Shown: piece after piece, positions 1 to 41,205 of the stretch | Numbering within the stretch: position 1 is the first letter of the stretch | How the letters are laid out: each line of letters begins with the position of its first letter | Origin: an uncultured bacterium | Lineage (GTDB): Bacteria > Omnitrophota > Omnitrophia > Omnitrophales > Aquincolibacteriaceae | DNA: 64,000 bases | Direction: 5' to 3' | NCBI GenBank assembly: GCA_964373045.1 | Contig: CAYJSI010000004.1 | Location: 194 to 64,193, forward strand | Made by a program: the position numbers and the translations under genes | Notes under the pieces: generated by a model | The model's input: only the letters and a program-made list of their open reading frames with translations | Database searches by the model: none | What the model was told of the DNA's origin: nothing

Positions 1-1623
1 AATGGGGCCCGCATCCTGGAAGGCAGCCCGCATGATCTGGAGCATCTCATCAAAACCGGGGAACTCGAGACGCTCAAGGGGATTGGAAAAGGAAGCATCT
101 CGCACATCCTGCACGAATTTTATGAAAAGGGAAAATCCAAAGACTACGAAAGCCTGAAAAAGGGTTTTCCGGAAACGCTTTTCGATCTCTTCAAAATTCC
201 GGGGCTTGGCGCCAAGCGCATCAAGGCCCTTTATGAAGAGCTCGACATCAAATCGGTGGGCGAATTGGAATATGCCTGCAAGGAAAACAGGCTTCTTGAT
301 CTTGATGGTTTTGGGTTAAAAAGTCAGGAGAAAATTCTTCAAGGGATCGAGCACCTTAAAAAATCGGCCGGGCAATTTCGCATCGATTTTGCCAAGGCTG
401 AGAGCGAAAGAATCGTTTCCTATCTTAGAAAACAAAAGGGAATTACAAAAATCGAAGTCGCGGGCAGTCTTCGCCGGCATAAGGAAATTATTAAAGACAT
501 TGATATTCTGGTGAGCGCCCGGGACCCCAAAAAAATCCATGAGGCCTTCGTGAAATATTCCGAAGCCGAAACCATAGTGGCCCACGGGGATACCAAATCA
601 AGCGTTACCTTAAAAAGCGGCATCAATTGCGATCTTCGCACGGTCTCCGAAAAAGAATTTCCTTTTGCCCTTTATTACTTCACCGGAAGCAAGGAACACA
701 ATGTGGTTGTCCGTACTCTGGCAAAAAAGAAGAATATCAAGGTGAATGAATACGGCCTCTTTAAAGGGAATCGTCCGTTGCCTTGTCAAGACGAAACCGA
801 TATTTTTAAAACCCTCGAGCTTCATTACATTCCTCCCGAAGCGCGCGAAAACATGGGCGAGGTCGAGTGGGCTCGGGAGCGTGAGTTTCCCAAGCTCTTG
901 GAAGAGAAAGACATTCGCGGCGTTTTTCATGTCCATTCTAATTACAGTGACGGCGTGGCGCCGCTTGAGGCTATGATCCGGACGGCAGAGGCAATGGGTT
1001 TGGAGTATGTCGGCATCTCGGACCACAGCCAGTCGGCCAAGTACGCCAAAGGCCTTGAACCCGAAAGGCTTCGGATTCAGTGGAAGGAAATCGATCAGCT
1101 TCAAAAGAAATTCAAGATCTGGATTTTTAAAGGCATTGAGTCCGATATCCTTGGGGACGGGAAATTGGATTATCCGGAAGCGATCCTCGCGCAATTTGAT
1201 TTTGTGATCGGCTCGATCCACAGCCGTTTCAATCTGCCGGAAAAAGAGATGACGGAGCGTATCCTTCGGGCCATGGAAAATAAGCATTTGACCTTTGTGG
1301 GGCATCCTACGGGAAGGTTGATTCTGGCGCGGGCGGGTTATCAAGTGAATCTAGAAAAGCTTCTTTCTTTCGCCAAAAAATCGGGGGTAGTGATGGAGCT
1401 CAATGCCAATCCGCACCGGCTTGATCTGGATTGGCGGGTTTGCCACGGCGCTAAGAAAGACGGCGTGCTTTTTAGCATTAATCCTGACGCCCATTCGATG
1501 GAAGGATTAAAAGACATCACTTACGGTGTGGGCATTGCCCGTAAAGCGTGGCTTGAGAAAAAAGACGTCGTGAATACTATGCCGGTTGCAGAAATCGAAA
1601 AATTTTTAAGGAAACGAAAATGA
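1..1623 (+). CDS. polX: DNA polymerase/3'-5' exonuclease PolX (family X polymerase with C-terminal PHP domain), 5' end truncated by window
   Basis: Frame 1 is open from nt 1. Tandem HhH motifs are present (GIGKGSISHI, IPGLGAKRIKAL, LKSQEKI). The C-terminal PHP signature (HVHSNYSDG ... GISDHS ... SIHS) is present. Confidence 0.8.
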   Translation, partial: NGARILEGSPHDLEHLIKTGELETLKGIGKGSISHILHEFYEKGKSKDYESLKKGFPETLFDLFKIPGLGAKRIKALYEELDIKSVGELEYACKENRLLDLDGFGLKSQEKILQGIEHLKKSAGQFRIDFAKAESERIVSYLRKQKGITKIEVAGSLRRHKEIIKDIDILVSARDPKKIHEAFVKYSEAETIVAHGDTKSSVTLKSGINCDLRTVSEKEFPFALYYFTGSKEHNVVVRTLAKKKNIKVNEYGLFKGNRPLPCQDETDIFKTLELHYIPPEARENMGEVEWAREREFPKLLEEKDIRGVFHVHSNYSDGVAPLEAMIRTAEAMGLEYVGISDHSQSAKYAKGLEPERLRIQWKEIDQLQKKFKIWIFKGIESDILGDGKLDYPEAILAQFDFVIGSIHSRFNLPEKEMTERILRAMENKHLTFVGHPTGRLILARAGYQVNLEKLLSFAKKSGVVMELNANPHRLDLDWRVCHGAKKDGVLFSINPDAHSMEGLKDITYGVGIARKAWLEKKDVVNTMPVAEIEKFLRKRK

Positions 1624-2264
1624 AGGAAACACCCGAACAAAAGAAAAAACGGGTTTTAAAAATTGTCGGGCGGCTGCGCAAGAGCAATCCGAATCCGAAA
1701 TGTGCCTTGGATTTTTCAAACCCTTTGGAGCTTCTGGTGGCGACGATTCTTTCGGCACAGTGTACGGATAAACGGGTGAACCTGGTAACGCCGGCTGTTT
1801 TTAAAAAATATAAGACCGCCCGGGATTATGCCAAGGCAAATCCCAGAGAGTTTGAAGAACTCATCCACTCAACGGGATTTTATAAGAACAAGGCTAAAAG
1901 TATTTTGGGGGCTGCGCGGGAAATCGTGAGGCGTTTTAAGGAGAAAATGCCGGATCGTCTCGAGGATCTTGTCACCCTTCCTGGGGTCGGAAGAAAAACG
2001 GCGAACGTGGTCCTGGGAAATGCCTTCGGGGTGCCTGGGCTCACAGTCGATACGCACATGATCCGCATCAATCGCCTGCTTGGGCTGACCAGAGAAAAGG
2101 ATCCGGTTAAAATCGAGTTCGACCTCATGAAGATCATACCCGAAAAGGAATGGACGGATTACTCGCATCGGATCATCCATCACGGCCGCGTGCGCTGCAT
2201 CGCTAGGCGCCCGGACTGCCCGCACTGCGAAATCAAAGACCTTTGCCCTTCCGCCAAAACCTAA
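1620..2264 (+). CDS. nth: endonuclease III (DNA glycosylase/AP lyase)
   Basis: HhH-GPD motif LPGVGRKTANVVL. C-terminal Cys cluster C-x6-C-x2-C-x5-C for a 4Fe-4S centre. Size fits (214 aa). The start overlaps the PolX stop. Confidence 0.9.
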   Translation: MKETPEQKKKRVLKIVGRLRKSNPNPKCALDFSNPLELLVATILSAQCTDKRVNLVTPAVFKKYKTARDYAKANPREFEELIHSTGFYKNKAKSILGAAREIVRRFKEKMPDRLEDLVTLPGVGRKTANVVLGNAFGVPGLTVDTHMIRINRLLGLTREKDPVKIEFDLMKIIPEKEWTDYSHRIIHHGRVRCIARRPDCPHCEIKDLCPSAKT

Positions 2265-3520
2265 TGAAAACCGCACCGGAAACAACAAGTCTTCTCAAAA
2301 ATCTGGCCCTTGAAATGGGATTTGATGTCGTAGGCGTGACGGTTCCCAAGGCGCTTCGCGAGGGCGAAGAAGCGATTCGCGCCTGGACGGAGGAAAAACG
2401 GCACGGCACCATGAAATATCTGGAGGATTTTGAAGCGCGCAGAAACCGTTTTTATCAAGATTTTCCGGATGCAAAAAGTGTGATTGTGCTCGGAGTGAAT
2501 TATTATTCGAACGAGAGGATAACACGTCATCCTGAGGAGTTTCGCCGCAGGCGAGACGACGAAGGATCTCGAGATTCTTCGTCCCGCAGCAGCGGGACTC
2601 AGAATGACGTTTACGGCCGTGTGGCGAGGTATGCGTGGGGCAAGGACTATCATCAGGTGATCCGGAAGAAGCATGAATTGTTGATTGAAAGGTTGAATGA
2701 AATATTTGTAAGGGCGAGGCAGGCCGTGCCCTTACGATTTCAGTCGTGCGTGGATACCCAGCCCCTCCCTGAGCGATTTGCCGCCAAGCAGGCCGGACTC
2801 GGCTTTATCGGAAAACATACGGGACTTTTAAGCCAAAAATTCGGGCCCTGGCTTTTTCTCTCGGAAATTGTGACCAATCTCGAACTCGAAGAAGATATGC
2901 CCTCTGAAGGAAATTGTGGAACATGCGTTCATTGTCAAAAAATTTGTCCGACCGGTGCGTTAGATGAGGATTACAAAATCGATGCAAAAAAATGCATTGC
3001 CTATCTTACGATCGAACACAAAGGAGTCATTGCGCGCGAGCTTCGTCCCAAGATCAAAAACTGGCTTTTTGGGTGTGACGAGTGCCTTGCGATCTGCCCT
3101 TTTACCTCCAAACAAAAAGAGGGAAGCTGGCCGGAACTCAAGGCCTCGGCCGGCTTCGGGGAATGGATCGATTTAAAAGAACTTTTCGAGATTCCATCCA
3201 ACGCCGCTTACGAACGAAAATTTTTTGGCACAGCGCTCATGCGTGTAAGCCGTAAGCAAATGCTTCGCAATGCCTGCCTTGTGCTCGGCAATATTGGCAG
3301 AGAAAATCCTGTAGGGGCGAGGCAGGCCGTGCCCTTACTTATGAAAGCCCTCAGGGATCCCGCTTCGCTTGTACGGCTTCACGCCGCCTGGGCGCTCGGC
3401 CAGCTTCCCTTTGAGGAGGCCAAAAAGGCCCTCAAGCGACACCAGCCCCTCGAAGAAGACACCGAGGTTTTAAGAGAGATCCGATCTTCTCTCACGCAGG
3501 CGTGCACAGTCATCCCATAA
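2264..3520 (+). CDS. queG: epoxyqueuosine reductase QueG (B12/4Fe-4S), with low-complexity and repeat-derived insertions
   Basis: The ATG overlaps the nth stop (TAATG). Ferredoxin-type motif CGTCVHCQKICPTGAL plus a second Cys cluster. HEAT-like C-terminus (LRDPASLVRLHAAWALGQL). It is longer than typical QueG because of RRRRDDEGSRDSSS and two copies of a 28-nt palindrome. Confidence 0.8.
   Translation: MKTAPETTSLLKNLALEMGFDVVGVTVPKALREGEEAIRAWTEEKRHGTMKYLEDFEARRNRFYQDFPDAKSVIVLGVNYYSNERITRHPEEFRRRRDDEGSRDSSSRSSGTQNDVYGRVARYAWGKDYHQVIRKKHELLIERLNEIFVRARQAVPLRFQSCVDTQPLPERFAAKQAGLGFIGKHTGLLSQKFGPWLFLSEIVTNLELEEDMPSEGNCGTCVHCQKICPTGALDEDYKIDAKKCIAYLTIEHKGVIARELRPKIKNWLFGCDECLAICPFTSKQKEGSWPELKASAGFGEWIDLKELFEIPSNAAYERKFFGTALMRVSRKQMLRNACLVLGNIGRENPVGARQAVPLLMKALRDPASLVRLHAAWALGQLPFEEAKKALKRHQPLEEDTEVLREIRSSLTQACTVIP
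2708..2735. repeat. GTAAGGGCGAGGCAGGCCGTGCCCTTAC hairpin element inside queG (copy 1)
   Basis: The 8-bp inverted repeat GTAAGGGC/GCCCTTAC is read directly. A near-identical copy lies at 3311-3338. It is translated in-frame as RARQAVPL. Confidence 0.7.
3311..3338. repeat. GTAGGGGCGAGGCAGGCCGTGCCCTTAC hairpin element inside queG (copy 2)
   Basis: 27 of 28 nt match 2708-2735. It is translated in-frame as GARQAVPL. Confidence 0.7.
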
Positions 3521-3719
3521 GGCTGTTCCGACTGTTACGTAGGTTATGACTCCGTCAATGCCGCCATTTTTAAAGATTGCCTTGAGATCCGGAATCCGGG
3601 TCTACTTTACGGTGATCTGACGATCGAAAAAATCACAAGCAAAATGGTCTCCGAGCGAATGAAGGGGGGGATTCTTTTGGCATTGAGACGTCAAGGGAAG
3701 AACGATAAAATCTATCCGC

Positions 3720-3752
3720 CCGCAGAAAATGACGAAATTTCCACGGGCAGTA
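3720..3752. repeat. 33-bp direct repeat (copy 1) CCGCAGAAAATGACGAAATTTCCACGGGCAGTA
   Basis: Identical 33-mer at 4204-4236. Each copy is followed by a short GC hairpin. The pair brackets the ORF6N gene. Confidence 0.8.
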
Positions 3753-3794
3753 CTCGCGCATAAGCGCGGGTGCGGTTCAGATTAGGGAATAGAG

Positions 3795-4172
3795 TTAAGA
3801 ATGGAAGCCGATTCGGCGTTTCGGCGGTACCGGAACGTCTGCGGGTGGCTCTAGCAATCGCATGACCTTGCGTAGAACATCCACAATGGCGAGTTCATGG
3901 ACGTCAAGGCGTTGGGTCAACTGCTTTTCCAGCTTTTTCAGCTCCTGTGCGAGTTCTCGGTTATTCGATAACAGGGTCCGCATCTTCACGAAGGCGCGCA
4001 CCACAAACACGCTCATTCGTGCCGCCGTCAGGCTGTTCAATACATTCGCAGCCATCAGGGCGCCTTGTTCCGTAAAGGCGAATGGCCGGAAGCGCGGATC
4101 CCGATGCTTCTTCGAACCGGTCACAAATTGTGACCGGTTCCCCTTGAGTTCCTGCCGGGAAAGCCGGAACAT
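3795..4172 (-). CDS. ORF6N-domain protein (phage/ICE-associated, KilA-N-like)
   Basis: The motif SQFVTGSKKHRDPRFRPFAFTEQGALMAANVLNS matches the conserved ORF6N core (S-Q-x-x-T-S-x-x-H-R-D-P-R-x-x-P-x-A-F-T-E-x-G). It is the only clear minus-strand gene in a + strand block. Confidence 0.6.
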   Translation of the reverse strand: MFRLSRQELKGNRSQFVTGSKKHRDPRFRPFAFTEQGALMAANVLNSLTAARMSVFVVRAFVKMRTLLSNNRELAQELKKLEKQLTQRLDVHELAIVDVLRKVMRLLEPPADVPVPPKRRIGFHS

Positions 4173-4203
4173 AAAATCAAACGGGAACCGGTCTTTGTTC
4201 CGT

Positions 4204-4236
4204 CCGCAGAAAATGACGAAATTTCCACGGGCAGTA
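4204..4236. repeat. 33-bp direct repeat (copy 2)
   Basis: Identical to 3720-3752. Confidence 0.8.
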
Positions 4237-4368
4237 TCAAGCCGCGGGGCTTGAGTATCTTAATAACCTGCTTTTGGAGAATAAACACGCGGTAAGGATG
4301 GAATCATGACCTACCCGGCCCTCGAAGAACTGCTCAGCCACTCATTGTTTCAATGTCCAATATAATAA

Positions 4369-4584
4369 ATGGAGAAAAGAGAAAAACTTATGCCCGGCAG
4401 AAAGACGCAAAATAAAGAAAAGACTTCAAATGGCGCCAACCTCGGATTTGAGGAAAAGCTTTGGAAAACAGCCGATAAACTCCGCAACAATATGGATGCT
4501 GCGGAATACAAGCATGTGGTGCTGGGTCTTATTTTCCTGAAATACATCTCAGATGCCGAGGTCTTAAACGAGATCCCATTCTAG
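4369..4584 (+). pseudogene. hsdM: N-terminal remnant of a type I restriction-modification methyltransferase HsdM
   Basis: [39 protein letters not shown] is the characteristic HsdM N-terminal helix. The ORF stops after 71 aa and nothing HsdM-like follows downstream. Confidence 0.55.
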
Positions 4585-4690
4585 ACAAAACTGTAGGGAA
4601 TATTGTATAGTACGCTCCCCTTAAGAGATGTGGATGGCATTATCCCTCCGCGGCTCACGGAATAGACCTAAGATACGGAGAATGCTGAAG

Positions 4691-5020
4691 ATGAGTAAGG
4701 AGAAAGTTGTTACGGACAGCAGTTTTAAAAGCGAGGTACTGGACTCCAAGACCCCTGTTTTGGTGGATTTTTGGGCGGAGTGGTGCGGCCCCTGCCGCAT
4801 GCTGGCCCCGGTGGTGGCCCGAATTGCCGAAGCCAACGACGGCAAGATCATTGTCGGTAAAATGAATGTGGATGACAATCAGGAAACGCCCCAGCGCTAC
4901 GGCATTCAAGGCATCCCGACCCTTCTTTTCTTCAAAGGCGGGGAGTTGGTTCAGCAAGTGGTGGGATTTCAATCGCAGGAGAATATTCAGCGTATCATTG
5001 ATGACATTATCGGTGCTTAA
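4691..5020 (+). CDS. trxA: thioredoxin
   Basis: WCGPC active site and FKGG motif. 109 aa from the internal ATG (MSKEKVV). The ORF extension upstream is unlikely to be real. Confidence 0.9.
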   Translation: MSKEKVVTDSSFKSEVLDSKTPVLVDFWAEWCGPCRMLAPVVARIAEANDGKIIVGKMNVDDNQETPQRYGIQGIPTLLFFKGGELVQQVVGFQSQENIQRIIDDIIGA

Positions 5021-5789
5021 CCCTAAACCTCTCACTCCTTTACAAGATGGCGCTGTCTACGGCCCCATTCGTTCCAGGCGCCTCGGATCATCGCTTGGAA
5101 TCAATCCGCTTCCCGTCAGTTACAAATTTTGCGATTTTGACTGCGTCTACTGTCAATATGGCTGGACGCCCGAAAAAGGAACGGGGGAAAAGTTAAAACG
5201 AGCTGCCGAACTTCTGGAAGAAATTGAACGCGCCTTTATCCATCACAAGCGGGTCGGAACGCCGGTCGATTGCATTACCATCGCAGGCAACGGCGAACCC
5301 ACCCTTCATCCCGAATTTCTAACATTAGTCGAGGGCCTGCTCAGTTTGCGGGATCAATTTTATCCCAAGGTCAAAATCGGTGTTCTCTCGGACTCCTCGC
5401 AGGCGCACCGGCCCGAAATTAAAGAGGCCCTTGTGATGTTAGATGAGCGTTACATGAAGCTCGATGCCGGCCACCGCGAACTTCACGAAAAAATCAATAA
5501 GCCGCGCGGGAATTTTGATTTTGAGCGCATGGTCAACGCCCTTCACTCGTTCCGTGATATCGTGATCCAAAGCCTCTTTATGCACGGGATTTACGATAAC
5601 ACCCATCGCGAAGACTTGGATCATTGGGTCGAGGTGCTTGGATTTATCCTGCCGCGTGAAGTACAGGTGTATACCGTGGACCGGGGTCCGGCGGATCCCT
5701 CGGTGACGGAAGTGAGCGCGGAAGAATTAAAAAAAATTGCGGAACTTTGTCAATCTATGACGGGAATCCCATCGCTCGTTTTTGAATAA
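5001..5789 (+). CDS. radical SAM protein (function unknown)
   Basis: CDFDCVYCQYG is a CxxxCxxC SAM-cluster motif. The start is uncertain; I take the first ATG, which overlaps the trx 3' end. Confidence 0.65.
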   Translation: MTLSVLNPKPLTPLQDGAVYGPIRSRRLGSSLGINPLPVSYKFCDFDCVYCQYGWTPEKGTGEKLKRAAELLEEIERAFIHHKRVGTPVDCITIAGNGEPTLHPEFLTLVEGLLSLRDQFYPKVKIGVLSDSSQAHRPEIKEALVMLDERYMKLDAGHRELHEKINKPRGNFDFERMVNALHSFRDIVIQSLFMHGIYDNTHREDLDHWVEVLGFILPREVQVYTVDRGPADPSVTEVSAEELKKIAELCQSMTGIPSLVFE

Positions 5790-5802
5790 TTGGAGGATTC
5801 GA

Positions 5803-6852
5803 ATGAATATCACGGAAGGAAAACTTAAGAAACTGGAAGCCTTGTCGGACTCACGCGGTATTATCCGGGCGGCGGCGATGGATCAGCGCGGTTCTTTAAG
5901 GAAGGCCATTGCCAAGGAAAAGGGCGTGGAAGCCAAAGAGGTGACGCGGGCCATGATGGAAGAATTCAAAGTGGCCGTAAGTAAAGTCCTCACACCTCAC
6001 GCAAGCGCCATTCTTCTTGACCCGGAATACGGACTTCCTGCAGCCAAGGCACGAAGCAAAAACGCCGGCCTCTTGCTCGCCTATGAATCGAGCGGCTATG
6101 ACAACACACGCCCGGGGAGAATTCCCGATCTCTTGGAAAATGAGACGGTGCGCACGATTAAAGAGGCGGGCGCGGATGCGATCAAGGTATTGATTTACTA
6201 CACGCCCCTTGATAAAAAAGAAGTGAATGACATCAAGCACGTTTTTACGGAGCGGATCGGCGCCGAATGCGCTGACCGCGATATTCCGTTCTTCCTCGAA
6301 TTTGTCGGCTACGATCCAAACGAAGGGGATGTGAATACGCTCGAATATGCCAAGCGCAAGCCCGAGGTCGTGGCAAAAAGCATGCAGGAATTTTCCAAGC
6401 CGGAGTATCAAGTGGATATCCTCAAGGTTGAAATCCCCATCAATATGAAATTCGTCGAAGGCGCGAAATCCTTTAAAGGGCAGAAGGCCTACACGAAAAA
6501 GGAAGCGATTAAGTATTTTCAGGAAACGGCGAAGGTCACGAAGAAACCCTTCATTTATTTGAGCGCGGGTGTGAGCGACGATGAATTCCGCGAGAGCCTT
6601 GAACTTGCGGCCGAGGCCGGCGTGAAATATAACGGGGTTCTTTGCGGACGCGCAACCTGGAAAGATGGGATACCCGTTTACGCCAGACAAGGTGTCAAGG
6701 CCCTTGAAAGTTGGCTCAAGGATCAGGGTGTTAAAAATATTCAGGCTTTGAACGCGGTGCTCGAGAAAAGCGCAAACCCCTGGTATGACGTCTACGGCGG
6801 GAAAAGCAACGTCAAACCCGTCGCAACAAAACGGCAAGCCGTTGGTGCTTGA
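5803..6852 (+). CDS. class I aldolase of the tagatose-1,6-bisphosphate aldolase (LacD/DeoC-like) family
   Basis: MDQRGSL ... LLDPEYG and the lysine-containing KVEIP region resemble LacD. The ATG at 5803 has an upstream GGAGG. Confidence 0.55.
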   Translation: MNITEGKLKKLEALSDSRGIIRAAAMDQRGSLRKAIAKEKGVEAKEVTRAMMEEFKVAVSKVLTPHASAILLDPEYGLPAAKARSKNAGLLLAYESSGYDNTRPGRIPDLLENETVRTIKEAGADAIKVLIYYTPLDKKEVNDIKHVFTERIGAECADRDIPFFLEFVGYDPNEGDVNTLEYAKRKPEVVAKSMQEFSKPEYQVDILKVEIPINMKFVEGAKSFKGQKAYTKKEAIKYFQETAKVTKKPFIYLSAGVSDDEFRESLELAAEAGVKYNGVLCGRATWKDGIPVYARQGVKALESWLKDQGVKNIQALNAVLEKSANPWYDVYGGKSNVKPVATKRQAVGA

Positions 6853-6855
6853 AAT

Positions 6856-6883
6856 GTAGGGGCGACTCGCGAGTCGCCCGTAC
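6856..6883. repeat. GTAGGGGC-family palindromic element (short form)
   Basis: GTAGGGGCGACTCGCGAGTCGCCCGTAC is a near-perfect hairpin in the spacer before the AKR gene. Confidence 0.7.
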
Positions 6884-6890
6884 TACCGCC

Positions 6891-7859
6891 ATGAAACACC
6901 GCATTCTCGGGAAAACGGGTCTTCGGGTTTCCGAAGTCGGTTTTGGCGCCTGGGCGATCGGGGGAACAAGCTATGGTCCCACCCGCGATGAAGATTCGCT
7001 CGATGCCCTCGAGGCCGCCTGGGAATCCGGGGTTAACTTTTTTGATACGGCCGATACCTACGGCCACGGTCACAGCGAAACTCTTCTCAGCCGTTTCCTA
7101 AAAAATAAACCGCGCCATCAAACCATCATCGCTTCAAAGGTGGGCTGGGATTTTTATCACGGCGCCAGCCGCAAAAATTTCGATCTCACTTATGTGCGTT
7201 TTGCGCTTGAGCAAAGCCTGAAGCGACTTGAACTTGAGACGATCGATCTTTATCAGCTTCACAACCCTTCGATTGAATTGATTAAGCGGGGTGAGCTCGT
7301 CGGCCTGCTTGAGGAGTTCAAAAGGGAAGGGAAGATCCGTTTCATCGGAACGTCCATCCATAGCAAAGACGAGGCCTTTGCCGCGATGGAGGATCCGCGG
7401 GTGGATACGCTTCAACTTGTCTTCAATCTCCTCGATCAGCGTATGGCCGAAGAGGTATTTCCTGAAGCTCAAGCGAAAAATATCGGCCTGATCGTGCGCG
7501 AACCCTTGGCCTTCGGCATGCTTACGGGCAAATACACGGCGGATCACGAGTTTCACAAAATAGATCACAGGCGCCGCTTCATGCGGGAGCAGCTGGAGAA
7601 CGATCTTAAAAAAATTGAAGCCGTCAAAGGTGTTTTATCAACGAAACATTTGCCGCTTGTGCGGGCAGCGCTTGAGTTTATTTTGAATTTTTATTCCCTT
7701 TCCACTGTGATCCCCGGCGCTAAATCAAGGGCTCAAGTGCTGGAGAATGTTCAGGCATCGAATGATCCGAAACTTCGGATGGAGGAATTGCGGCGTTTGA
7801 GGGAACTTTATTTGAAAGAACCGATTTTTCGGGAAATATTAAAATTTAAAATAATGTAG
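6891..7859 (+). CDS. aldo/keto reductase
   Basis: ILGKTGLRVSEVGFGAWAIGG and DTADTYGHGHSE are AKR signatures. Confidence 0.85.
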   Translation: MKHRILGKTGLRVSEVGFGAWAIGGTSYGPTRDEDSLDALEAAWESGVNFFDTADTYGHGHSETLLSRFLKNKPRHQTIIASKVGWDFYHGASRKNFDLTYVRFALEQSLKRLELETIDLYQLHNPSIELIKRGELVGLLEEFKREGKIRFIGTSIHSKDEAFAAMEDPRVDTLQLVFNLLDQRMAEEVFPEAQAKNIGLIVREPLAFGMLTGKYTADHEFHKIDHRRRFMREQLENDLKKIEAVKGVLSTKHLPLVRAALEFILNFYSLSTVIPGAKSRAQVLENVQASNDPKLRMEELRRLRELYLKEPIFREILKFKIM

Positions 7860-7918
7860 GGGCGCACCCGTGTGTGCGCCCTACGGATAGACGGGCAGAT
7901 ACATGGGTCTGCCCCTAC
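7856..7918. repeat. GTAGGGGC-family palindromic element (full two-hairpin form)
   Basis: GTAGGGGCGCACCCGTGTGTGCGCCCTAC followed by GGATAGACGGGCAGATACATGGGTCTGCCCCTAC. The outer ends are inverted (GTAGGGG/CCCCTAC). Confidence 0.75.
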
Positions 7919-7945
7919 AATTCACAACCGAGGTTTTGTCAAAAT

Positions 7946-9142
7946 ATGAAACACATCGTCATTGTTCCGGATGGTTTGGGGGATTGGCCGGTTGCTGAGC
8001 TCGGCAATAAAACACCGCTTGAGGCCGCCCACATTCCTCATCTTCATGCCCTTGCCAAAAAATATATACAGGGGACGCTGCGGACAACCCCTGAAGGGAT
8101 GTATCCGGGAAGCGACGTGTGCGGGCTCAGCCTCATGGGTTATGATCCGAAGGTCTGCTACACCGGCCGCGCACCGCTTGAAGCCGCTAATTTAAGTTTA
8201 GTGCTTGGGCCGGGCGAGCTTGCCTTCCGGACGAATCTTGTGAATGTGGAAAACGGCGTCCTCGCGGACTATAGCGCCGATCATGTAACAACCGAGGAAG
8301 CAGCCATCCTCATCCAGACGATTCAAAAGGAACTCGGGACGAAGGACATTCAGTTTTATCCCGGCAAGATGTACCGGCATATCATGATCTCTAGAAAACC
8401 TCTGACCTTTGACGTGAAGACGGATCAGCCGCATGATTTTCAGGGGGAGCCTTATGCCCAACACTTGCCGCGCGGCAAGGGAGCAGAAATCTTAATCGAT
8501 CTTACGGAAAAATCAAAAGCCGTGCTTGAAAATCACCCCGTCAATATTGAACGGGCAAGACGGGGGAAAAAGAAGGCCAATATGATTTGGTTTTGGGGCG
8601 GCGGCGGCGCGCCCAAGCTTGAGCGATTCGAAAAAAAATTCGGGGTGAAGGGCGGCGTGATTTCTGCCGTCGATCTTTTAAATGGTTTGGGCCGCTATCT
8701 CGGATGGGAAATTATATCGGTTCCCGGCGCCACGGGTTATTTTGACACGGATTACAGGGCGAAAGGGGAGTATGCCGTCAAGGCCCTGGAGCGCCTCGAC
8801 CTTGTGTTTGTGCATATCGAAGCGACGGACGAGGCGGGCCACTTAGGACTCGCCAAAGAAAAAGTGAAGGCCATCGAGGAAATCGACCGCCATGTGGTGG
8901 GCCCTCTCGTCAAACACACAAGCCGGTTAAAAGAGTGGCGCCTTTTCGTGGCCCCCGACCATTACACGCCGACGGCTAAAAAGACCCATGTGGGAGATCC
9001 CGTTCCCTTCATTTTTGCGGGTTCCGATGTGGCACGATCATCCCATTTGCCGTATACTGAAAAGGCCGCCGAGTCGACGGGTATCTATGTGGACCCCGGG
9101 CATGATCTCATGCGCCGGCTGATTCAAGGCTGGAATTATTAG
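7946..9142 (+). CDS. apgM: 2,3-bisphosphoglycerate-independent phosphoglycerate mutase, archaeal type
   Basis: VIVPDGLGD and HIEATDEAGH are metalloenzyme-superfamily motifs. Overall length and layout fit ApgM. Confidence 0.8.
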   Translation: MKHIVIVPDGLGDWPVAELGNKTPLEAAHIPHLHALAKKYIQGTLRTTPEGMYPGSDVCGLSLMGYDPKVCYTGRAPLEAANLSLVLGPGELAFRTNLVNVENGVLADYSADHVTTEEAAILIQTIQKELGTKDIQFYPGKMYRHIMISRKPLTFDVKTDQPHDFQGEPYAQHLPRGKGAEILIDLTEKSKAVLENHPVNIERARRGKKKANMIWFWGGGGAPKLERFEKKFGVKGGVISAVDLLNGLGRYLGWEIISVPGATGYFDTDYRAKGEYAVKALERLDLVFVHIEATDEAGHLGLAKEKVKAIEEIDRHVVGPLVKHTSRLKEWRLFVAPDHYTPTAKKTHVGDPVPFIFAGSDVARSSHLPYTEKAAESTGIYVDPGHDLMRRLIQGWNY

Positions 9143-41131: not shown

Positions 41132-41205
41132 GCGCCCGTAGCTCAATTGGATAGAGCGTCACCCTCCGAAGGTGAAGGTTACGTGTTCAACTCACGTCGG
41201 GCGCA
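41132..41205 (+). tRNA. tRNA-Arg (anticodon CCG)
   Basis: Cloverleaf read by hand: acceptor GCGCCCG/CGGGCGC, D-arm GCTC/GAGC, anticodon stem TCACC/GGTGA with loop CTCCGAA, T-arm ACGTG/CACGT with TTCAACT, discriminator A. CCA is not encoded. Confidence 0.85.

Follow-up and report, generated by a model that had tools for sequence, protein, structure and literature searches.

What kind of DNA separates queG from trxA in an uncultured Omnitrophota-like bacterium, and what is the perfect palindrome that lies within it? We analysed a window of 64,000 nt (contig CAYJSI010000004.1 of assembly GCA_964373045.1), in which these two housekeeping genes enclose an islet of ~1.1 kb with three gene fragments and zero intact genes: a piece of an AlbA_2/HATPase_c_4 gene, a truncated ORF6N gene and the start of hsdM, a type I restriction-modification (R-M) gene. 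An earlier note on this DNA had regarded the islet as the scar of foreign or defence DNA, possibly with a cassette mobilised by site-specific recombination at two 33-bp direct repeats, and the palindrome as operator-like. We consider it moderately likely that all of the following hold: the islet is an eroded R-M/defence remnant, the repeats are by-products of rearrangement, and the palindrome is an inherited element of the ORF6N family. The islet is ordinary in itself; the palindrome, which lies inside the ORF6N coding sequence, is a robust feature of a large gene family.

The palindrome is unique in the window (0 expected) and is predicted to fold with −21 kcal/mol (z −4.2). It had been described as perfect and as lying near the 5' end of ORF6N; the symmetry is indeed perfect, whereas the location reflects the truncation of this copy, and in intact genes the element occupies approximately codons 62–74. 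A DNA alignment of four ORF6N genes showed GAACCGGTCACAAWTTGTGACCGGTYC to be invariant while the surrounding synonymous sites vary. We then used 80 metagenomic loci, fetched by protein patterns outside the palindrome and anchored on the Q codon by tblastn, which yielded 69 distinct segments. Nearly all of these carry a perfect palindrome centred on CAA-W-TTG at identical codons, yet with arms of several types that encode different peptides (Table 1). Partner positions pair in 96.3% of cells, compared to 70.2 ± 1.0% in shuffles and 22–44% when partners are slid against each other. Changes on both sides occur at 9 of the 13 pairs, with 233 double-changed cells against 79.7 ± 7.5 in shuffles. Positions 1–12 from the centre are 90–100% Watson-Crick paired (at least 96% apart from position 1), and the arms reach at least 12 nt in 56/69 segments.

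When the peptides were kept and synonymous codons redrawn, pairing fell to 0.46 ± 0.014 (observed, 0.958) and perfect arms, present in 55 of 69 segments, were expected in 0.01. The protein sequence therefore cannot account for the palindrome; rather, the palindrome shapes the peptide. Codon usage shows the same constraint. Synonymous codon entropy is ~0.5–1.1 of the gene-set value over most of the ORF6N gene, falls to about 0 at Q (CAA in 76/77), I (ATT in 40/40), A (GCG in 38/38) and G (GGT in 26/26), and also collapses at T (ACC in 49/58). A second stretch conserved at the nucleotide level in blastn (3979–4016, encoding RMSVFVVRAFV) was dropped, its codon entropy being not unusual. In an AlphaFold model of a full-length homologue, the palindrome-encoded residues 66–74 lie in coil, and the two 10-residue blocks that cover them have a mean predicted local distance difference test score (pLDDT) of 75 and 56. 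We conclude that strong selection, or else a strong mutational drive, acts on ORF6N genes to keep their DNA self-complementary at fixed codons. These genes are an unusually clean natural case in which paired nucleotide changes override amino-acid choice.

The arms also bear on the nature of the constraint. Mismatches within genes comprise 5 G:T and 13 A:C, and those in palindromes upstream of the genes (see below) 44 G:T and 24 A:C. The lack of a consistent preference for G:T wobble argues against a purely sense-RNA hairpin, although the upstream counts lean the opposite way. Rfam 15 gave no relevant match at E ≤ 1 in positions 3400–4750 of the window or in five loci with upstream arrays, and no paper in the literature searched connects ORF6N with a palindrome; the element is apparently undescribed. 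As a separate observation, 4132–4145 and 4180–4193 of the window form a 14-nt inverted repeat (93% complementary), through which the right arm of the palindrome could pair with an upstream segment encoding RFP. This alternative pairing was rejected, as it is not conserved in three homologues.

Table 1. Coordinates of features in the window, with palindrome types and carriers from other ORF6N loci.
Feature	Position	Strand	Sequence or size	Remarks
QueG	2243–3520			Pfam identification
AlbA_2/HATPase_c_4 fragment	3524–3658	+	45 aa	Internal piece; directly after queG stop; weak similarity may extend to ~3697
Direct repeat, copy 1	3715–3752		38 nt	One mismatch to copy 2; exact 33-mer 3720–3752
GC hairpin by copy 1	3753–3770		CTCGCGC ATAA GCGCGGG	Folds; z −3.9 for 91-nt context, + strand
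5'-truncated ORF6N gene	3795–4202	−	125-aa open reading frame (ORF) 3795–4172	In-frame homology continues to 4202 (RNKDRFPFDF...)
Palindrome	4114–4140		GAACCGGTCACAA-W-TTGTGACCGGTTC	Perfect 13+1+13; inside ORF6N; encodes NRSQFVTGS
Direct repeat, copy 2	4199–4236		38 nt	Exact 33-mer 4204–4236; 4-nt overlap with end of ORF6N homology
GC hairpin by copy 2	4237–4254		TCAAGCC GCGG GGCTTGA	Folds
hsdM remnant	4369–4584	+	71-aa ORF	Only residues 28–64 (4450–4560) match HsdM
Thioredoxin (trxA)	within 4628–5020			Pfam identification
Arm type			AACCGGTCACAAWTTGTGACCGGTT	Peptide NRSQ[FI]VTGS
Arm type			CTTGAGGTCGCAAWTTGCGACCTCAAG	Peptide LRSQ.ATSS (LRSQIATSS among examples)
Arm type			CTTGAGATGCCAATTTGGCATCTCAAG	Peptide LRCQFGISS
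Arm type			CTTGATATCGCAAATTGCGATATCAAG	Peptide LISQIAISS
Arm type			ATGCGGTCACAATTTGTGACCGCAT	Peptide MRSQFVTA
Arm type			AACCCATCGCAAATTGCGATGGGTT	Peptide NPSQIAMGS
Bacteroides ovatus plasmid			ATGTCATCACAATTTGTGATGACAT	Palindrome
Segatella copri 4-kb plasmid			12+3+12	Palindrome with different core
Butyrivibrio pCY186			14+1+14	Copy 15 nt upstream of ATG; 10/12 in-gene copy with same arms
Legionella			TATCGCA-AAA-TGCGATA	Palindrome
Sulfuricurvum			10/12 complementary	Palindrome
Bacteroidota-type viral contigs			arms of at least 9 nt	Perfect in 9/17

The gene that carries the palindrome in the window is itself damaged. Its 125-aa product on the minus strand was correctly assigned to ORF6N (PF10543; E 3.7e-14, with 53.2 bits where the gathering cut-off is 27.8), but the match covers profile positions 34–86 of 86 only and leaves positions 1–33, with the motif IRGxxVILDxDLA, unmatched; the gene is therefore 5'-truncated. 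By tblastn the homology begins at 4202, and upstream of it we found an in-frame stop and no start codon. Missing are ~45 N-terminal residues (IRGxxVILDxDLA...VKRN), the predicted strand-helix DNA-binding part, which leaves the C-terminal two-thirds of the gene. The fragment is 69–79% identical to its homologues, of which intact ones mostly have 176–229 aa. In the AlphaFold model of the full-length homologue (mean pLDDT 71), long helices come after a small N-terminal domain of the strand-helix kind. No relative in the PDB was found by sequence and none was significant by fold (best E 0.31, MarR/MerR-like); PHROGs labels the homologues and the fragment anti-repressors. At its C-terminus the subfamily (3795–3830 in the window, and homologues) has a proline-rich stretch and then a strongly conserved R-R-x-I-G-F-[HQ], and the alignment columns I175, G176 and F177 are invariant or nearly so.

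In at least five phyla the palindrome has been retained at these codons. Beyond the metagenomic segments we found it in Bacteroidota, Bacillota, Legionella and Campylobacterota, and plasmids of Bacteroides, Segatella, Butyrivibrio, Legionella and Sulfuricurvum carry it. On the Segatella copri plasmid NZ_CP152486.1 (L176 among the numbered loci that we fetched; 4140 bp) just two genes are annotated, one for a replication initiator and one for ORF6N, and the palindrome of the latter has the core TCAAA-AAA-TTTGA. A scan of viral contigs with the ORF6N subfamily alignment found nothing. A sequence with the core and inner arms of the ORF6N element, TATAAGGTCACAAWTTGTGACCTTATA, recurs in six viral contigs (L197, L201, L208, L221, L222, L228) with no ORF6N gene in the fetched stretch.

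Further palindromes surround the gene. Scanning for CAAWTTG-centred palindromes with arms of at least 9 nt and at most one mismatch, we found 177 in 330 kb of ORF6N loci, compared to one each in 848 kb of control loci and in the window. Those of the ORF6N loci cluster within about 450 nt of the ORF6N gene. In 34 of 77 distinct loci, from 1 to at least 4 extra palindromes lie ~40–250 nt upstream of the ATG, spaced roughly 30–110 nt apart; across the 77 loci there are none in the N-terminal coding half and almost none downstream. At L122, four palindromes take up the 150 non-coding nt that separate the stop of argG from the start of ORF6N, a region that folds with z −8.5. The arm types in these arrays are the same set as those within genes, and the gene's own intragenic type is present in 13/34 arrays, against 6.5 ± 2.1 in permutations (reached by 14/2000). 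Matching upstream and intragenic pairs thus occur in homologues (these 13 of 34 array loci, and Butyrivibrio); the corresponding 5' region has been lost from the window.

Many of the array loci are orthologous: the ORF6N module comes right behind the argG stop (...RLNALRLKVAAKVQRKK*), which in one bacterial group is a point of recurrent insertion or synteny (L122 at 2722–2875, L168, L126, L117, L153, L100, L112, L150, L154, L147, L128, L116, L166, L141 and L142). These orthologous loci nevertheless differ in the number and order of their hairpins, a sign that the arrays turn over fast. In L155 and L167, a ~300-nt insert at about 250–550 nt upstream of the ORF6N start lies between the gene and some of its array hairpins. 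Among the inverted repeats of this insert is ...gctcctacggagc..., and a small mobile element is a possible identity for it.

Could the palindrome be functionless and perpetuate itself, with intrastrand template switching copying one arm onto the other and the arms co-varying wherever the protein loop tolerates it? The pairing is strictly Watson-Crick with almost no wobble, the arms are mostly perfect and the encoded peptide sits in a low-confidence loop, as this explanation would have it. Template-switch correction of quasi-palindromes is, moreover, reportedly an established mutational mechanism (credited to Ripley 1982 and to Dutra and Lovett 2006). However, drift alone should have erased the element in many lineages, and instead it keeps its codons from phylum to phylum. 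Nor does the mechanism fit the extra copies, which occupy a fixed upstream position and are enriched for the gene's own type, or the contrast between ORF6N and control loci in the scan. We regard this explanation as improbable.

The palindrome of the window came with its ORF6N gene and is that gene's copy of an element which ORF6N genes in general carry. Its codons are always the same and specify a loop with little structure, and paired substitutions keep it palindromic even when amino acids change. As to its role, our preferred interpretation, which we hold tentatively and with somewhat less than even confidence, is that the palindromes are putative binding sites of a dimeric ORF6N protein. 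Intrastrand template-switch repair within the hairpin could help to keep the arms perfect. The long helices that follow the N-terminal domain in the structural model could mediate dimerisation. By analogy, an upstream site and an intragenic site 245–385 bp away would act like the operator pairs lac O1/O2 or gal OE/OI.

Auxiliary operators in coding regions that work with DNA looping are well known from lac O2 in lacZ and gal OI in galE. In ORF6N loci, likewise, an in-gene palindromic site is accompanied by a matching site near the promoter or ribosome-binding site, ~245–385 bp apart, and the gene's own site type is over-represented in the upstream arrays. Unlike lac O2 and gal OI, the ORF6N site lies in the putative regulator's own gene and is conserved family-wide, its arms of 12–19 nt vary by paired changes, and the arrays hold several arm types. 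Another parallel is parS: one of these centromere sites, a perfect palindrome, lies inside parB/spo0J and is bound by that gene's product. The ORF6N palindrome similarly lies inside the gene of its putative recogniser, but parS is conserved across bacteria in the sequence itself, whereas in ORF6N conservation is limited to the core and the symmetry. That the family's element acts like an operator is still a live hypothesis, whereas the earlier idea of an operator particular to this locus gives way to an element common to ORF6N genes family-wide. In the window, the DNA-binding N-terminal half of ORF6N is gone, as is any upstream array, so that the palindrome there is a relic of inheritance and not a working operator.

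An alternative is that the palindromes act through structure, as cruciforms or single-stranded hairpins at which DNA is recombined or processed; crossover in the conserved CAAWTTG core would shuffle and truncate ORF6N genes and seed the arrays. We think this unlikely, but it accounts for several of our observations: complementarity is kept while arm sequence varies freely, the centre is AT-rich and the arms GC-rich, the predicted folds of the window copy and the L122 array are strong, and the number and order of palindromes in the arrays vary between orthologous loci downstream of argG. Two further observations fit as well. First, some palindromes are hybrids with left and right arms of unlike types (L105 at 2930–3040, also L106 and L107, and hairpin 4 of L122 at 2850–2870); such hybrids, TTGAGGTCGCAA|T|TTGTGACCGGTTC for example, look as if they arose by exchange at the CAAWTTG core. 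Second, C-terminal-only ORF6N copies in L105–107, L108 and L114 start at a palindrome or at most ~10 codons from one. Yet no recombinase consistently co-occurs with ORF6N genes, the truncation in the window lies ~60 nt from the palindrome, and the core may be conserved simply through encoding S-Q-[FI]. Programmed inversion between palindromes of the same type was rejected, as no locus has its N- and C-terminal halves on opposite strands.

Other structural elements offer partial likenesses. In integron attC sites, structure is conserved and sequence varies. The ORF6N element shares this preference for structure over sequence, has hybrid sites, and its core could be a crossover point, but there are no cassettes between the palindromes (spacers of 5–40 nt), the palindromes are perfect with no extrahelical bases, and no integrase is linked. 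Repetitive extragenic palindromic (REP) sequences with their bacterial interspersed mosaic element (BIME) arrays, and the Rickettsia palindromic elements, are short palindromes, some of them in frame within genes. These resemble the ORF6N loci in having tandem palindromic units right after stop codons and in showing that palindromic DNA is tolerated in frame; unlike REP/BIME, ORF6N palindromes are not dispersed, keep a fixed position in one protein family and have no associated RAYT transposase.

ORF6N genes are widespread in phages, plasmids and defence islands. It is tempting to speculate that the ORF6N protein recognises its own CAAWTTG palindrome, whether for autoregulation through a pair of operators or as a cruciform or recombination site by which ORF6N genes are shuffled and truncated, and that this is an undescribed element with fast-evolving arrays. 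Taken as a whole the proposal is doubtful, though not far-fetched. If it were true, the ORF6N signature peptide x-[RK]-S-Q-[FI]-[VA]-T-x-x would largely be the translation of the protein's own DNA target. What the palindrome does show is that the most conserved 'protein motif' of a Pfam family is set by a nucleic-acid constraint, which affects the modelling of ORF6N/KilA-N-like domains and the reading of their conservation. As a defined DNA site it also gives a testable handle on proteins that are annotated only as anti-repressors or as candidate defence genes (PDC-S05).

The other part of the question concerns the islet itself. The earlier note had rightly placed it between queG and trxA, with ORF6N as the region's only minus-strand gene (this holds for the credible genes of 1–9142), and had recognised that the 71-aa ORF keeps only the N-terminus of HsdM. 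That ORF matches Pfam HsdM_N with 47.9 bits at profile positions 2–38 of 135, and TIGR00497 at positions 4–40 of 515; it represents the first ~64 codons of hsdM, ends after ...FLKYISDA and has no methyltransferase domain. Neither hsdS nor hsdR lies beside it: nearby genes encode QueG, thioredoxin, a radical SAM protein and an aldolase, and 3520–4620 holds no other long ORF.

A third fragment, overlooked in the earlier note, was found in the present analysis. Its 45 aa match Pfam HATPase_c_4 at positions 4–38 of 89 with E 6.8e-5, which falls short of the Pfam cut-off. A phmmer search against 1.8 billion representatives gave 26 matches (best E 1e-9), and the fragment is 69% identical to residues 271–315 of P0122, a protein of 459 aa with SLFN_AlbA_2, HATPase_c_4 and winged helix-turn-helix domains. 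It had no match in the Bacteroides 'ATP-binding protein' or in the plasmids searched. We also considered that the ORF6N segment had been inserted into a HATPase_c_4 gene; this is ruled out, as the gene is not collinear after copy 2 of the repeat.

The families of all three fragments are ones that typically occur in type I R-M loci and defence islands. Enrichment of RhuM-family genes as neighbours within type I R-M loci has been reported (PMC9881135), and PADLOC puts RhuM-family genes and ORF6N together under PDC-S05, a candidate anti-phage system of one gene. The window fragment matches PDC-S05 (E 6.6e-23; PDLC04856 positions 57–162 of 177, E 1.3e-20); intact homologues match almost the full profile (positions 2–164 of 177, E 2.9e-43), whereas the window copy is without the N-terminal third. 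One PDC-S05 representative cut the plating of T7 and T5 ~1000-fold (bioRxiv 10.1101/2024.09.26.614923); that gene has a RhuM domain, which the coiled-coil ORF6N subfamily of the window does not show. Homologues of the ORF6N gene have as neighbours a Schlafen-AlbA_2/NB-ARC gene with a methylase/Vsr pair, an IS481 element, or Fic and 'ATP-binding protein' genes. The last arrangement is that of a Bacteroides ovatus plasmid, in which ORF6N lies between a Fic gene and an 'ATP-binding protein' gene whose family is given by annotation alone and which has no similarity to the window fragment.

Type I R-M loci with passenger genes (RhuM/ORF6N-type, Fic/DOC, AlbA_2 'ATP-binding protein') bring together the same kinds of gene that lie side by side in the islet as hsdM, ORF6N and AlbA_2/HATPase_c_4. 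Unlike those loci, the islet has fragments only, lacks hsdS, hsdR and a methyltransferase domain, and shows a scrambled gene order and orientation. Because the three families are all typical of such loci, the reading as a decayed defence island is well supported, and here our analysis bears out the earlier note. Deletions would have left an internal AlbA_2/HATPase_c_4 piece, the 3' two-thirds of ORF6N and the first ~64 codons of hsdM, none of them functional. On this reading, a type I R-M/defence island stood between queG and trxA in an Omnitrophota-like genome and was later lost.

How, then, did the direct repeats arise? Both 33-mers reported earlier are present, and the similarity extends to 38 nt with one mismatch. 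The copies stand in direct orientation, 484 nt apart, and are the only two in the window even at up to 3 mismatches (0 expected in shuffles). The small GC hairpins that had been noted after each repeat both fold, and they differ from each other in sequence. The 38-mer can itself fold on the minus strand into a hairpin of 9–13 pairs, G-U pairs included. Read on the minus strand, copy 1 sits 43 nt past the ORF6N stop codon, and at the other end the ORF6N homology begins at 4202, within the last 4 nt of copy 2; copy 2 therefore marks the truncation breakpoint of a pseudogene and not the edge of an intact cassette. Our best guess is that the 38-nt repeats are not attachment sites but were left behind when local rearrangements truncated ORF6N, with a partial local duplication, later eroded, as their most likely source.

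This departs from the earlier proposal of a mobilised cassette, in which the 33-mers would be att-like recombination sites and the ORF6N segment between them either a small cassette or what an integrated element left as a scar. Two near-identical 38-mers directly flanking the ORF6N remnant at this distance are far beyond chance, and a hairpin after each would suit such sites. However, only a broken gene lies between the repeats, and they do not bound all the foreign DNA, as the hsdM and HATPase_c_4 fragments, two of the three, lie outside them. We found no integrase or recombinase among the Pfam-checked long ORFs of 256–6852 (two further long ORFs up to 9142 and the rest of the window were not scanned) and no tRNA near the islet, the only one in the window being at 41132. 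The 33-mer has no further copy in the window, in the 171 fetched loci or in viral contigs. We consider att-like sites very unlikely.

A repeat in a metagenomic contig could also be due to misassembly, a loop being traversed at a shared 33-mer. The 33-nt exact core is a common de Bruijn k-mer size and the genome is that of an uncultured Omnitrophota-like organism, but the similarity reaches beyond the core to 38 nt with a mismatch, the sequence between the repeats joins ORF6N in frame with the repeat, and the protein is on record at NCBI (68.7-kb contig). An artefact thus seems extremely unlikely.

A duplication of a more specific kind is another possibility: an ORF6N unit that was truncated already could have been duplicated in tandem long ago, with a period of ~484–497 nt, and the repeats could remain from this after the outer copies were almost wholly deleted. 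Around the repeats there is collinear similarity, in that TTCCATTCTTAA at the ORF6N end (3795–3806) resembles TTCCATCCTTAC (4292–4303) and that GATTTTAT..GTTC..TTCCC is present after both copies; the junction sequence is common to both as well. Moreover, copy 2 reads TARGNFVIFCGR in the ORF6N frame, in which 'TARGNFVIF' (in-frame RGNFVIF) resembles the N-terminal motif RGxxVI[LF], followed by an 18-codon gap in a MAFFT alignment. Against this, the flank similarities are reached by 16/500 and 36/500 shuffles, the profile test is not significant (E 0.07), and the contrast between 97% identity within the 38-mer and about 60% beyond it sits oddly with a single duplication. We see this scenario as possible but less likely than not. 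That the 38-mer is the true ORF6N N-terminus with an 18-codon deletion was rejected, as tblastn gave E 2.5 and the profile test E 0.07, values that other frames equal; the resemblance is a hint only.

Several points weigh against the combined reading of an eroded defence remnant, by-product repeats and an inherited palindrome. The hybrid palindromes, and the truncations at or near palindromes, suggest recombination at these sites. The palindromes of one array differ in their outer arms while each is internally perfect, which a sequence-reading dimer alone would not enforce, and arms of 12–19 nt exceed typical operators. The 19-nt AGGTCACAAWTTGTGACCT occurs in 43 viral loci, of which 17 have an ORF6N gene at or near it (14 of them with the sequence inside ORF6N coding sequence) and 26 have no ORF6N gene nearby; some of the 26 resemble bidirectional terminators. 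The collinear similarity around the 38-nt repeats is marginal (p about 0.03 and 0.07). Finally, no genome among the QueG relatives is close enough, at no more than 57% identity, for an empty-site comparison.

The flanks are otherwise unremarkable. Beyond queG and trxA, Pfam identified PolX/PHP, Nth, a radical SAM protein and an aldolase, and the GC content of the islet region is nothing unusual. The nearest QueG proteins in a scan of genome contigs belong to Omnitrophota-like metagenome-assembled genomes and are 51–57% identical; the order polX-nth-queG is retained there and the downstream genes differ. QueG of the window has 425 aa compared to 373–376 aa in these nearest relatives, and carries a charged low-complexity insert (…RHPEEFRRRRDDEGSRDSSSRSSGTQNDV…) at residues ~95–135, between the DUF1730 region and the Fe-S domain. 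On the other side of the islet, a sigma-70-like promoter match (TAGACA-18-TATAGT) lies at 4582–4611, at the end of the hsdM remnant and just upstream of trxA. The true start of trxA is probably the ATG at 4691 (MSKEKVV), because the thioredoxin domain begins at residue 26 of the 130-aa ORF (4628–4700 region).

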